Source of the DNA: Candidatus Xenobium occultum
Lineage (GTDB): Bacteria; Vulcanimicrobiota; Xenobia; Xenobiales; Xenobiaceae
Direction of reading: 5' to 3'
Length of the DNA: 64,000 nucleotides
Assembly (NCBI GenBank): GCA_002423485.1
Contig: DIWH01000070.1
Span: 25,429-89,428 of the forward strand
Made by a program: the position numbers and the translations under genes. Shown here piece after piece: positions 43,405 through 50,010 of the stretch (position 1 is its first letter; the number at the start of each line of letters is the position of its first letter). The notes beneath the pieces were generated by a model that worked only from the letters and a program-made list of their open reading frames with translations, had not been told where the DNA came from and searched no databases.

Positions 43405-44445
43405 TCAGTAGGTCCCGGCGCCGGCCGACTCACCCTTCACGATCTTCACCGAGGCACTGGCTCCGATGCGGGTGGCCCCCGCCTCGATCATCTTCTGGGC
43501 GGTCTCGAAATCGCGGATTCCTCCAGACGCCTTGACCCCGATATTGCGGCCGACCGTCCGACGCATGAGGGCGACGTGGTGGGCGGTGGCGCCACCCGGC
43601 CCGAAACCCGTGGAGGTCTTCACGAAGTCCACTCCGGCCCGCCGTGCCAGATGACAGGCCCGGACCACCTCGTCATCGGAGAGCAGTGCCGTCTCCAGGA
43701 TGGTCTTGACCAGGCGCCCACCAGCCGAGAGCACCACTTCGCGGATATCGCTTTCGACCAAATCATCCTGACCGTTCTTCAAAGCCCCGATGTTGATCAC
43801 CATGTCGATCTCATCGGCGCCGTTGGCAACGGCATCCCGGGTTTCCATGACCTTGGTGATGGTCGTCGTGGCCCCCAAAGGAAAGCCCACCACCGTACAG
43901 ACCTTGACCCCGCTGCCCCGCAGGGCCTCGGCAGCCGTCCGCACCCAGGCGGGGTTGATGCAGACCGACGCAAAGCTGTGGGTGCGCGCTTCCTCACACA
44001 GGTGAAGGACCTCTTCGCGGGTCGCATCGGGCTTGAGGAGGGTGTGGTCGATCATGGCCCCCACCTCGCGTCCGGTGATCCGGTTGCCCAGCCCACTGCC
44101 CACGCGGTCGGCGCCGGCCTCGATGACGGCCTGCACCTTCTGGGGGATCAAGGTGGCGCAGTGCCCCAGGCCCAGGCATTCCCCGGTCAACTGAGCCGGA
44201 CACCCCTGCCCACAGCCGACGCTGAAAGCGGTTGGAGCGTTGGGCAGGGTCATGGAAGGCGGCGGGGTGGGAGTCCACTGTGGAGGCGAGGGGGCAACTG
44301 CCGGGACCGGCGCCGGGGCATTCGCCCCGCGCAGCTCGTGCATGACCTCCTCGGTGATCCGAGCCACCAAGGCTTCAATGTCCACCGGGTTCACCTCCAC
44401 ATGACCGTACTTCCGGGATTCAAGTCCCCCGACTTGTGGGGTCAA
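43405..44445 (-). CDS. deoC: deoxyribose-phosphate aldolase with a ~115-aa N-terminal extension carrying an encapsulation-peptide-like helix and a Cys4 motif
   Basis: The DeoC core begins at [13 protein letters not shown] and has the Schiff-base Lys region [10 protein letters not shown]. Upstream are the amphipathic helix [18 protein letters not shown], a Pro-rich linker and then [20 protein letters not shown]. The track start is a TTG and the true start is uncertain. Confidence 0.8.
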
Positions 44446-44508
44446 AGACCCCTGTGTGAAAAGGTTCTGCTGGCTGGCAGGGTGCCATCCGAGCTCCCCT
44501 CCAGAACC

Positions 44509-44889
44509 TCACCCTGCCGCCTTCGAAGCCCGACGGGCGCGGCGGCTGGCCGCCTTCGCCGCAGAGGGGCCTTCGTCCTGCGCGCCTGGGGCCGAAGCCA
44601 GGACGGGAGTGTCGGGCGACTGGATGTCCAGACGGTCCACGATGCCCACCACCACGGCCTCGGCTGGAGTCCGGGGATCGGCCAGGACCTGCCGGGAGGA
44701 GCTGCCCTCGTAGACAACCAGGACCGTGTCTCCCGAACCACTGCCGACCGAATCCACGGCCAGCACGGTTGGACCGCCCACCTCCCCGGTGAGGGGATCC
44801 TCCGGGACCACCAGGACCAGGCGAACCGAATCAAAGGAGGGATGCTGGGCCGTGGCCCAGAGGCTGCCGACCACGCGCCCCAGGATCAT
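44509..44889 (-). CDS. BMC vertex (pentamer) protein, EutN/CcmL/PduN family, with a basic C-terminal tail
   Basis: MILGRVVGSLWATAQ...VLAVDSVGSGSGDTVLVVYEGSSSRQ matches the BMC-P consensus. Confidence 0.8.
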   Translation of the reverse strand: MILGRVVGSLWATAQHPSFDSVRLVLVVPEDPLTGEVGGPTVLAVDSVGSGSGDTVLVVYEGSSSRQVLADPRTPAEAVVVGIVDRLDIQSPDTPVLASAPGAQDEGPSAAKAASRRARRASKAAG

Positions 44890-45152
44890 CGCAGGTCCAT
44901 CCCGTCCACCAGCCCGACGATGGCGGCATCGATGGGAGCCAAGGGCTGGGGCCAGGGAATGGTCGCCTCCCGCCCCTTGACCAGATAGACCAGGTCGCCT
45001 TCACGACAGGCCACCGTGTCCACGGCGACGATCAACCCACCCTGGTGGGCTCCGTCATGGTTCACCGGTTGCACCACACGCAGGACGGCGCCCTCCAGGT
45101 CCGGGACCTTTCGGGTGGCCACCAGATTCCCGCGGACCACGCCCAGGAACAT
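44886..45152 (-). CDS. BMC vertex (pentamer) protein, EutN/CcmL/PduN family
   Basis: MFLGVVRGNLVATRK...LIVAVDTVACREGDLVYLVKGREA. There is an ATGA overlap with the previous gene. Confidence 0.8.
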   Translation of the reverse strand: MFLGVVRGNLVATRKVPDLEGAVLRVVQPVNHDGAHQGGLIVAVDTVACREGDLVYLVKGREATIPWPQPLAPIDAAIVGLVDGMDLR

Positions 45153-45614
45153 CTAGACCGGACCAGCCAGGAAGCGACGCTCGATCTGCAGCATCTTCTC
45201 GATGCGGCGGGCGTGCCGCTGTCCGCCAAAGGGGGTGCAGAGCCAGGTCTTGACGATGTCCCGGGCCAGGCCCACCCCGGTGACCCGACCGCCCAGGGTC
45301 AGGACGTTGGCGTCGTTGTGCTCGCGGGAGTTCTTGGCCGTGAAGGTGTCGTAGCAGGGGGCTGCTCGGACGCCGGGCACCTTGTTGGCGGTCATGGCCG
45401 AACCAATCCCGGCGCCATCCACCATGATACCCAGGGTGCGCTCCGGATCCGCGGCGACCGCGCTGGCCACCAGCAGGGCGATGTCCGGATAGTCCACCGG
45501 ATCGACGCTGTGGGTCCCGTAGTCCACGACCTCGTGGCCGAGCTCCCGGACAAAGCCGATCAGGTCCGTCTTCAGGGCAAAGCCCCCGTGATCACTGCCG
45601 ATGATGACTCGCAA
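45153..45614 (-). CDS. rpiB: sugar-phosphate isomerase RpiB/LacAB family
   Basis: (M)RVIIGSDHGGF...AVLTLGGRV motifs. The TTG start at 45614 has a GGAGG SD 8 nt upstream. Confidence 0.8.
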   Translation of the reverse strand: MRVIIGSDHGGFALKTDLIGFVRELGHEVVDYGTHSVDPVDYPDIALLVASAVAADPERTLGIMVDGAGIGSAMTANKVPGVRAAPCYDTFTAKNSREHNDANVLTLGGRVTGVGLARDIVKTWLCTPFGGQRHARRIEKMLQIERRFLAGPV

Positions 45615-48593: not shown

Positions 48594-48614
48594 GGTCTTC
48601 CTCCTGAAGGGGCG

Positions 48615-48914
48615 CTAGTGGGCGTCCTTGCGGTAGACGGTTTGACCTTCCATGTCGATGGTATCGACGATGGCCATGATCACCGCATCCACCGGGGTGT
48701 TCTGGGTCTGCGAGGTCTGACGCGCGGAGCTTCCGGCCACGACCAGGACGATCTCGCCCTGCCCGGCCCCCACCGAGTCCACGGCCACCAGGGGCTTGCC
48801 CTCCCCTTTCAGGGTCAGGTAGTCCACGGCCTGGACCAGGTGCAGCTTGGCCCCTTCGAGTTTGTGGTCCTTCTGGGTGCACACCACGGTGCCCAGGACC
48901 CGTGCCACGATCAT
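48615..48914 (-). CDS. BMC vertex (pentamer) protein, EutN/CcmL/PduN family
   Basis: MIVARVLGTVVCTQKD...PLVAVDSVGAGQGEIVLVVAGSSARQ. There is an ATGA overlap with the upstream gene. Confidence 0.85.
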   Translation of the reverse strand: MIVARVLGTVVCTQKDHKLEGAKLHLVQAVDYLTLKGEGKPLVAVDSVGAGQGEIVLVVAGSSARQTSQTQNTPVDAVIMAIVDTIDMEGQTVYRKDAH

Positions 48915-49687
48915 CGGAAACGCACCTCGATCCCGTTGCGGCTGGCGGTCTCCCGAGCCAGCGCGGTGACGATGCTGCCGGTGGCGACCTCCAGGACCTT
49001 CTGGCCGGCCTTTGCGGCAGCCAGGACATCCTCGTTGGTGACCACATCCCTTCCCCCTGAGGCCGAACCCGCCAGGCGAGACACTCCCTGAGAGAGGTGG
49101 GTGGCGATCCGCGCTGGAGGCTCCAGGCGCAATCCCATGCCCTGGACCGTGCGGACGTGCCCCTGGACCACCGCCAGGATCCCGCCAGGGATGCGGGAGG
49201 AGTGCCGGGTCAAGCGCTCGGCGTCGTCCCCTCCCGCCAGGACGGGAACCCCTTGAATCAGACCTGCCACAACGGCCGCCGTTGGGGGCGAATCCACCAA
49301 CAACAGGGCGGTGCGAGCCAGCACGTCCAGCGGGGCACAAGGCAGCACCACGGCCTCAACCGACCGGACCAGATCGTCCCACACCTCAGGCGGAGGGACG
49401 ACCTCATCCGGGCAGCGACCGAGCCCTTTGGTGATCCGGTCTACGGGATAGCCGGGCCAGTCCACCCCCACCCAGCGGACTCCTGCGACGGAACGCAGGG
49501 CCTGCCAGGCAGGGGTCTCCGCAGCCGCACCGGGAGCCCCGCACAACAAGATCCGACGGCCAGGCGAAACCAGGGCCTGGGTTTGGATCGATGGCGTGGG
49601 TGCAGGTTGTGCCCCCCCGACCGCAGATTGGGCCAGCACTTCGACCACCCGCTCCGTGATCAGGGCGATCAGGGAGTCGTGGTCCAT
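48911..49687 (-). CDS. BMC-associated protein of unknown function with an N-terminal encapsulation-peptide-like helix
   Basis: MDHDSLIALITERVVEVL helix then a Pro-rich linker. The C-terminal VVTNEDVLAAAKAGQKVLEVATGSIVTALARETASRNGIEV motif (VxTxxDV...TPLARD-like) could not be assigned to a known family from memory. Confidence 0.55.
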   Translation of the reverse strand: MDHDSLIALITERVVEVLAQSAVGGAQPAPTPSIQTQALVSPGRRILLCGAPGAAAETPAWQALRSVAGVRWVGVDWPGYPVDRITKGLGRCPDEVVPPPEVWDDLVRSVEAVVLPCAPLDVLARTALLLVDSPPTAAVVAGLIQGVPVLAGGDDAERLTRHSSRIPGGILAVVQGHVRTVQGMGLRLEPPARIATHLSQGVSRLAGSASGGRDVVTNEDVLAAAKAGQKVLEVATGSIVTALARETASRNGIEVRFR

Positions 49688-49701
49688 CGCTCAGGCGCCG
49701 G

Positions 49702-50010
49702 CTACTTCTGGCTGGCCTTCTCGCGAGGCGGGGCAATGGGCAGGACATCGTCCAGGTCGCGATGCGGGCGAGGAATGACGTGCACCGACACGAGCTCGCC
49801 CACCTTGCGGGCGGCGGCGGCTCCGGCGTCGACCGCAGCGCGGACCGCAGCCACGTCGCCGCGGACCAGGGCCGTCACGTAGCCGGCGCCGATCTTCTCA
49901 TACCCGATCAGCTTCACGTTGGCTGCCTTGACCATGGCATCCGAGGCCTCGACCATGGCCACCAGGCCCTTGGTCTCGATCATTCCGAGTGCTTCGTAGG
50001 TGGTGATCAA
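49702..50010 (-). CDS. BMC hexamer shell protein (PduA/EutM-type, Pfam00936)
   Basis: [34 protein letters not shown] is near-identical in pattern to PduA/CcmK N-termini. Confidence 0.9.

Follow-up and report, generated by a model that had tools for sequence, protein, structure and literature searches.

The 64 kb window of Candidatus Xenobium occultum DNA analysed here (contig DIWH01000070.1, G+C content about 65%) carries on its minus strand, between positions 43405 and 50010, nine co-oriented and closely packed genes (Table 1). Four of them encode shell proteins of a bacterial microcompartment (BMC), namely one BMC-H hexamer and three BMC-P pentamer paralogues, and three encode an acylating aldehyde dehydrogenase (AldDH), an RpiB-family protein (RpiB, or RPI) and a deoxyribose-phosphate aldolase (DERA, DeoC). 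The remaining two encode a 258-aa protein with flavoprotein-like and PduM-like parts, called FLAV below, and a membrane glycosyltransferase of family GT39. The cluster probably specifies a metabolosome of the sugar-phosphate-utilising (SPU) type, a lineage-specific reduced relative of the SPU4 subtype, in the Vulcanimicrobiota (Eremiobacterota) class Xenobia.

Seven of these genes had been listed in the first-pass annotation of the window, and the identities given there were confirmed: PF00936 recognised the BMC-H (1.4e-30), PF03319 recognised the three BMC-P (1e-29 to 1e-21), and Pfam and NCBIfam models recognised AldDH, RpiB and DeoC. The genes for FLAV and GT39 had been overlooked, and with these two added to the seven we count nine.

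Table 1. Genes of the microcompartment cluster and its immediate flanks (positions in the 64 kb window).
Feature	Position	Strand	Evidence
era GTPase gene, upstream flank, outside the organelle	50160..51059	-	Pfam MMR_HSR1 and KH_2
BMC-H, hexamer shell protein, 102 aa	49702..50010	-	PF00936, 1.4e-30; EutM-like, 145 bits
FLAV, cargo-like protein, 258 aa	48911..49687	-	no Pfam match; fold and profile searches
BMC-P1, canonical CcmL/EutN-like pentamer, 99 aa	48615..48914	-	PF03319, 1.1e-29; CcmL-like, 96 bits
AldDH, acylating aldehyde dehydrogenase, 483 aa	47142..48593	-	PF00171; NF011927/PRK15398, 638 bits against a cutoff of 403
GT39/GT-C integral membrane glycosyltransferase, 515 aa	45592..47139	-	weak PMT_2 and Agl23 matches; named homologue
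RpiB-family protein, 153 aa	45153..45614	-	PF02502, 1e-51
BMC-P2, divergent pentamer paralogue, 88 aa	44886..45152	-	PF03319, 1.3e-23
BMC-P3, divergent pentamer paralogue, 126 aa	44509..44889	-	PF03319, 1.3e-21 (residues 1-85)
DERA/DeoC, SPU signature enzyme, gene-caller model 326 aa	43405..44385	-	PF01791; TIGR00126, 290 bits against a cutoff of 117
recO, downstream flank, followed by ruvX, outside the organelle	42617..43363	-	RecO_N and RecO_C

Shell proteins, cargo enzymes and FLAV

The single hexamer protein bears the standard KAAN and PRPH edge motifs and is 89-96% identical to its relatives. The gene of the canonical pentamer BMC-P1 shares 4 nt with its upstream gene, and its product has its best match in the first BMC-P of a Firmicutes locus, that of Anoxybacter fermentans (8e-34), which is compared with the Xenobium locus below. 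The genes of the two divergent paralogues, BMC-P2 and BMC-P3, overlap by 4 nt and lie beside those of RPI and DERA; the best match of BMC-P2, the first of this adjacent pair, is the second BMC-P of Anoxybacter (2e-22). BMC-P3 ends in a C-terminal tail of 40 aa (44509-44628, minus strand) with the sequence LDIQSPDTPVLASAPGAQDEGPSAAKAASRRARRASKAAG and a final basic patch, AAKAASRRARRASKAAG. Judged from its composition the tail looks disordered, and similar tails are present in the related loci L003-L010 and L016 and absent from more distant ones.

A six-frame phmmer search of the whole 64 kb with BMC-H and BMC-P queries returned these four shell genes only. Queries for BMC-Ts, phosphotransacylase (PTAC) and PduS from two Firmicutes loci, which match one another strongly, found no PduS and nothing else further in the window. 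Since the BMC-H query picks up true BMC-Ts at 6.6e-20, a trimer-forming shell protein (BMC-T) encoded in the window would have been detected. No second PF00936 gene was found in the window or in the relatives examined, and neither PF06130 (PTAC) nor PF00121 (triosephosphate isomerase) matched any of the locus or window proteins. The statement of the first-pass annotation that the 64 kb contain no PduL/Pta-type phosphotransacylase was thus upheld both by Pfam and by the PTAC queries, and the locus itself is devoid of PduS/PduT, alcohol dehydrogenase and BMC-T as well.

DERA, AldDH and FLAV begin with nearly identical N-terminal helices (consensus approximately MD...(L/I)(I/V)ARI(T/V)EEV(V/M)..L), each of which is followed by a disordered linker. 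On AldDH and DERA such amphipathic helices, resembling encapsulation peptides (EPs), had already been noticed in the first pass, and this observation proved correct. The EP of AldDH, MDVDRAQIARIVEEVVRRC, precedes a Pro/Ala-rich linker, and the homologues of the enzyme carry the names EutE or propionaldehyde dehydrogenase. The start of DERA is likely to be the GTG at 44385 and not the TTG at 44445, where the open reading frame (ORF) begins, because the relatives begin at MDIE. The protein is laid out as an EP, a Pro-rich linker, a conserved Cys motif and the catalytic domain, its N-terminal extension amounts to about 130 aa, and its amphipathic helix is kept in all relatives. The catalytic D/K/K positions are also kept in the alignment with the relatives; the family assignment rests on TIGR00126 and not on the E. 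coli DeoC reference row of that alignment. The Cys motif of the extension (44080-44200, minus strand) has the form C-x7-C-x5-C(C), which all Xenobia loci preserve, and there is a CxxCxxC-like version in Anoxybacter. It finds no mention in the SPU papers examined, and it may bind a metal or an Fe-S cluster or form a disulfide.

Within the ORF at 45153-45737, RpiB starts with a TTG at 45614, 8 nt after a GGAGG. This start directly precedes the domain and leaves no EP on the protein, and in the relatives the stop-to-stop ORFs extend at most about 12 aa upstream of the domain. When RpiB is aligned to that of Clostridium thermocellum (3he8), an Asp stands in place of the catalytic Cys (imvDgagig versus IVICGTGLG), and the His is kept.

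FLAV is the sole further EP-bearing protein of the cluster and is kept in every locus. Its EP helix, MDHDSLIALITERVVEVLAQ, is followed by the disordered linker; in the AlphaFold model (pLDDT 81.7) the helix spans residues 3-22, and the pLDDT of residues 23-41 is below 50. By fold search the central domain has a flavoprotein (HFCD)-like Rossmann fold that agrees with those of FMN enzymes, the NAD(P)H-dependent DmrB among them. The C-terminal module of about 45 aa, the best-conserved part of the protein, is similar to PduM and to eut_hyp, and in the Anoxybacter homologue of FLAV this module matches the C-terminus of PduM as well. PduM is regarded as a structural component of the Pdu microcompartment and not as an enzyme. 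The profile search with FLAV yielded 788 cluster representatives; the NCBIfam model TIGR02536 ('eut_hyp') matched all ten of the family representatives that were sampled, some of which were matched by the CoaBC/AfpA flavoprotein models too. A sequence search of the family against PDB chains gave chance-level matches only. FLAV lacks a Pfam flavoprotein match, and the family consensus, P..L..LAK.A.L..D, is divergent at the position where HFCD flavoproteins presumably carry an FMN motif of the PASANT type. Because the FMN motif is divergent and the C-terminus resembles PduM, a role of FLAV as a scaffold would be just as possible as one in the regeneration of cofactors.

Assignment to the SPU type

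Seven subtypes of SPU microcompartments have been described (Sutter et al. 2021; Dwyer et al. 2024; PMC8217296, PMC11585597). According to these surveys, all of them have at least a BMC-P triplet, two members of which are always adjacent, a single BMC-H occurs in SPU3, 5, 6 and 7, and SPU1, 4 and 7 are the only subtypes that commonly have PTAC, the other four being reported to lack it. DERA is the universal signature enzyme of the type and has an N-terminal amphipathic-helix extension that is lacking in housekeeping DERA (Dwyer et al. 2024). The EP of AldDH is N-terminal in all subtypes except SPU6. The catalytic Cys of RPI (C66 in E. coli) is changed to Asp in all SPU RPIs, and a complex of DERA with RPI has been shown (Dwyer et al. 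2024).

The Xenobium locus agrees with this description in several respects. Its DERA gene (PF01791) stands beside shell genes and is adjacent to two BMC-P genes, the encoded enzyme has the amphipathic-helix extension, AldDH has an N-terminal EP, the Cys of RPI (PF02502) is replaced by Asp and, by count and position, there are three BMC-P, two of them adjacent. The SPU type, which the first-pass annotation had proposed from the set of enzymes, is borne out by the combination of these features. Among the subtypes, SPU4 has a main locus in which BMC-T is not consistently present and in which there is an EP-bearing protein related to eut_hyp and flavoproteins (Sutter et al. 2021). The Xenobium locus likewise encodes such a protein; the PTAC and triosephosphate isomerase of SPU4 were not found in it, nor was the second of the two similar BMC-H. 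The similarity of AldDH was considered as a guide to the subtype and rejected, since the enzyme is 55-59% identical to those of both SPU4-like (Anoxybacter) and PDU (Desulfofundulus) loci.

The subtype surveys also change the view of what is unusual in this cluster. The first-pass annotation had stressed the 3:1 ratio of pentamer to hexamer genes and the missing PduL; neither is an oddity when compared with SPU loci, because the surveys show both to be ordinary for the type. What stands of this part of the annotation is narrower. Every SPU subtype has at least one BMC-Ts, and loci without PTAC typically contain a BMC-Tdp, through which acetyl-CoA possibly leaves the shell (Dwyer et al. 2024). 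The locus departs from all seven described subtypes in that BMC-T of every kind, PTAC and PduS are missing together.

The possibility, raised in the first pass, that the shell proteins might group with a well-described type has been realised in part, in that the locus is collinear with the SPU4-like Firmicutes locus. The description that fits the cluster best is that of a new and reduced variant resembling SPU4, conserved vertically in Xenobia. No mention of this lineage was found in the BMC catalogues and papers that were searched.

Conservation and genomic setting in Xenobia

The related loci available for comparison, about 25 in number, comprise the metagenome or metagenome-assembled genome (MAG) contigs L003-L012 and L016 and 14 GTDB species representatives (L017-L030), with ±10 kb of surrounding sequence. 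A search for related loci with a narrow alignment reached only the lineage itself and one spurious match from Lachnospiraceae (L031). Wherever a related locus is long enough, the order is the same: era, BMC-H, FLAV, BMC-P, AldDH, (GT39), RpiB, BMC-P, BMC-P, DERA, recO, ruvX; era and recO flank the cluster in all of them. No BMC-T, PTAC, PduS or second BMC-H was found within these surroundings. Satellite shell or pduL genes, which the first-pass annotation had named as a possible challenge to its reading, are accordingly ruled out within the 64 kb window and over the ±10 kb surrounding the related loci.

The identity of FLAV across these loci ranges from 91% down to 32%. In the comparison with L030 the identity is 89% for BMC-H, 63% for AldDH and 62% for DERA, and 32% and 43% for RecO and RuvX, respectively. 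The better conservation of the BMC proteins than of the products of the flanking recO and ruvX indicates purifying selection on the former and argues for function rather than decay. All related genomes have the cluster inserted at the same point, implying one ancient insertion followed by vertical inheritance. The genes era, recO, ruvX and yceG are usually neighbours, and in the window the whole BMC operon sits between era and recO, after which come ruvX and yceG (42189-51059, minus strand).

The names on the matching records are Candidatus Xenobium, Candidatus Xenobia, Vulcanimicrobiota and UBP9. A number of MAGs with a Xenobia-type locus are labelled Burkholderiales or Armatimonadetes (L019, L020, L022, L023 and L030; P0182, P0216 and P0287), labels that are probably due to misclassification or mis-binning. 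In L017 (1430-1696; UBP9_UBA1432) the BMC-H gene is broken across two frames, and AldDH continues into GT39 within a single frame; both features are probably due to assembly indels and not to real pseudogenes.

The GT39 gene is present in a part of the lineage only, and in L021-L024, L028 and L030, where it is absent, AldDH is directly followed by RpiB. In the window it starts with a GTG 2 nt past the AldDH stop and stops inside the start region of rpiB. The product has about eight or more hydrophobic segments and an SLTVDEG loop motif that is kept in all orthologues, and a homologue with 85% identity bears the name 'glycosyltransferase family 39 protein [Candidatus Xenobium sp.]'. That the long ORF at 45592-47745 might be a spurious one, of the sort produced by high G+C, was rejected on account of the GT39-named homologues, the DE loop motif and the synteny. 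In L016 (2627-4525), a single contig of 5.9 kb, GT39 is fused in frame to RpiB. We did not adopt the idea of a membrane-tethered organelle from this fusion, which was seen on that one contig and which a one-base indel in the overlap would equally produce. A 40%-identical paralogue of GT39 lies inside an exopolysaccharide locus in another Vulcanimicrobiota MAG (L014, 10001-11419).

The remaining proteins of the window belong, according to Pfam, to pilus, TPR and housekeeping functions. A large type IV pilus cluster at 15500-40200 encodes PilB, PilT, PilC, pilins, prepilin peptidase, PilMNO and secretin, and next to it lie the genes of two giant TPR proteins, which are 1473 and 1695 aa long. At 11725-13443 there is a DDE transposase-like ORF. 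The region of the ORF at 8605-10107 was annotated by Pfam, an exact-sequence lookup having given no match.

Proposed function and closest known systems

In the metabolosome that we propose on the lines of the published SPU model, BMC-H hexamers would tile the facets of the shell and BMC-P1 would cap its vertices, while the adjacent pair BMC-P2/P3 would have some additional role. DERA, AldDH and FLAV would be packaged via their shared N-terminal helix, and RpiB may enter bound to DERA, as has been shown for the SPU6 proteins. Deoxyribose-5-phosphate would pass through the BMC-H pore and be cleaved by DERA into glyceraldehyde-3-phosphate plus acetaldehyde, the latter being trapped by AldDH as acetyl-CoA with the formation of NADH. 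Because PTAC, PduS/PduT, alcohol dehydrogenase and BMC-T are all missing from the locus, the cofactors would have to be turned over in another way, whether by means of a gene in some other part of the genome, by FLAV or by exchange through the shell. FLAV may be considered a candidate for the regeneration of CoA and NAD+; the DERA of Anoxybacter has a fused FLAV-like domain, and DERA-flavoprotein fusions are reported from microcompartments of Hodarchaeales (PMC12747264).

Several observations weigh against this interpretation. The SPU RPIs have an EP at the N-terminus together with a long linker (Dwyer et al. 2024), neither of which is present in the RpiB encoded here, and no BMC-Ts was detected in the 64 kb or in the ±10 kb around the related loci. 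The match of the BMC-P triplet rests on count and adjacency and not on the grey/orange colour clades of the pentamers. The direct match of the window FLAV to TIGR02536 is weak (E 0.008), and its link to eut_hyp is a transitive one. The substrate of the SPU organelles is itself only partly established, DERA activity having been shown for SPU6 only, and the organelle of Xenobium is one predicted from its genes. Finally, shell or cofactor-recycling genes may be located in satellite loci, as the scan extended over the window and the ±10 kb surroundings just mentioned.

The last point is the core of one alternative, according to which the cluster is the main part of a conventional SPU organelle, with BMC-T (PduT-like, Tdp or both), PduS and possibly PTAC encoded in satellite loci, in which case the actual shell would not be a minimal one. 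Satellites are documented for several SPU subtypes (PduS/T in SPU1 and DERA with two BMC-P in SPU7) and for HO (Tdp), and the part of each genome that was visible is small, so we give this explanation appreciable weight while holding it to be less than probable. The closest arrangement, SPU4, is however generally without satellite loci, and nothing shell-related was seen within 10 kb of about 25 loci across a deep divergence. In the Firmicutes locus PduS, Ts and the second BMC-H are placed between AldDH and RpiB; in Xenobia this slot is empty or holds GT39, a pattern that resembles the clean removal of a module, or one that was never gained, and not a relocation. It appears rather unlikely to us that the organelle is self-sufficient and minimal, with FLAV replacing the missing modules, for example by flavin-dependent re-oxidation of NADH or as a core scaffold, and with CoA and acetyl-CoA passing by some different path, for instance a pentamer paralogue or vacant vertices. 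The conservation of FLAV as the only additional EP-bearing protein in all loci and the likeness of its fold to FMN enzymes such as the NAD(P)H-dependent DmrB are in line with such a replacement, and the fusion of a FLAV-like domain to DERA in Anoxybacter (hhalign 98%), like the fusions in Hodarchaeales, speaks for a functional link. Yet no Pfam flavoprotein model fits the window FLAV, the consensus retains only P..L..LAK.A.L..D at the place of what we take to be the PASANT-type motif, and the C-terminal domain resembles PduM. Moreover, Anoxybacter has a FLAV homologue in addition to PTAC and PduS, so that FLAV is no simple substitute for these.

The absence of modules that the collinear Firmicutes locus possesses, and the gene of an unrelated membrane glycosyltransferase midway through the operon, might also be taken as signs of a decaying remnant of a fuller SPU locus that no longer builds an organelle. 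This explanation is hardly credible, given that all genes are intact and translationally coupled, that their order is kept in at least 14 species-level genomes and that the BMC proteins are markedly better conserved than the neighbouring recO and ruvX products. We consider it improbable that this is a minimal natural metabolosome of one hexamer and three pentamer paralogues in a genome without any trimer, PTAC or PduS/PduT. If that were true, cofactor turnover would follow an undescribed route, through the encapsulated flavoprotein/PduM-like protein or through extra pentamers that pass CoA and NAD(H), the BMC-P triplet would gain a function, and shell engineering would have in this cluster its smallest natural chassis. 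Should there be satellite genes, the locus is one more member of the SPU type and its interest is routine.

The SPU organelles belong to the most widespread types of BMC, but only a few of their enzymes have been characterised, and their BMC-P triplet and inactive-looking RPI are still without explanation. As that of a probable reduced SPU4-like metabolosome, the locus extends BMCs to the Vulcanimicrobiota class Xenobia and provides a conserved natural version with four shell genes and three EP-tagged cargo proteins and with no known cofactor-recycling or large-pore component. It may therefore serve as a test case for the parts that an aldehyde-trapping metabolosome requires, for the turnover of CoA and NAD+ without PTAC, PduS or Tdp, and for the role of the flavoprotein/PduM-like protein.

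Of the loci compared that of Anoxybacter fermentans (CP016379, L032) is the closest. Its order is PTAC, H, 247 aa, P, AldDH, PduS, Ts, H, RpiB, P, P, DeoC, where the 247-aa protein is homologous to FLAV. Its designation as SPU4 is our own reading, since the searchable text of the Sutter et al. 2021 supplements gives no match to Anoxybacter, nor to UBP9 or UBA1432. The two loci share the core H, EP-bearing flavoprotein/PduM-like protein, P, AldDH, RpiB, P, P, DERA, interrupted between AldDH and RpiB. They further have in common, with each other and with SPU4, the N-terminal EPs on AldDH and DERA, the BMC-P triplet, the Asp at the catalytic Cys position of RPI, the lack of Tdp and the lack of a consistent BMC-T in the main locus. 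In contrast to Anoxybacter and SPU4, the Xenobium cluster is devoid of PTAC, triosephosphate isomerase, the PduS/PduT pair and the second BMC-H, and it has GT39 in the PduS/T/H slot; its host belongs to Vulcanimicrobiota and not to Firmicutes, and its position is fixed between era and recO.

The DERA of the window also lacks the fused FLAV-like domain found in Anoxybacter. There the annotated DeoC of 217 aa is probably truncated, as the uninterrupted ORF (14724-16169 of L032) comprises 481 aa. The first approximately 190 residues of this long ORF are homologous to the EP-plus-flavoprotein-like family (hhalign 98%, E 2.9e-13), and we therefore regard the ORF as a FLAV-DERA fusion, which exists in this locus along with the separate 247-aa homologue.

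The PTAC-poor SPU2, SPU3 and SPU6 loci resemble the Xenobium locus in that their enzymes are AldDH, DERA and RPI only and that all have the BMC-P triplet, with a single BMC-H in SPU3 and SPU6. They carry, however, BMC-Tdp and often also Ts, the proposed route for acetyl-CoA, neither of which is found in the window locus, and the EP of the SPU6 AldDH is C-terminal and not N-terminal as it is here. A wider parallel is offered by the SPU-type BMC of Hodarchaeales described in a preprint (PMC12747264). It shares the core of DERA and AldDH, three P paralogues, an RPI without EP, a flavoprotein domain tied to DERA and a K/R-rich, seemingly disordered tail on one pentamer, whereas its loci contain two H, Ts, MNdh (PduS), PTAC and citrate synthase, unlike the locus in the window. 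The Hodarchaeales pentamer tails reach greater lengths (36-137 aa) than the 40 aa of the BMC-P3 tail and were shown to bind DNA (PMC12747264); the likeness is one suggested by the sequences.

As far as the shell is concerned, a further comparison is with GRM2, the choline BMC of Klebsiella pneumoniae. This organelle differs from the Xenobium one in having four BMC-H, one BMC-P, a glycyl-radical enzyme, PTAC and alcohol dehydrogenase. GRM2 is nevertheless natively without BMC-T, and one BMC-H with one BMC-P makes closed pT=4 shells, so that by analogy a shell without BMC-T would be structurally plausible for the reduced SPU4-like metabolosome of Xenobia as well.

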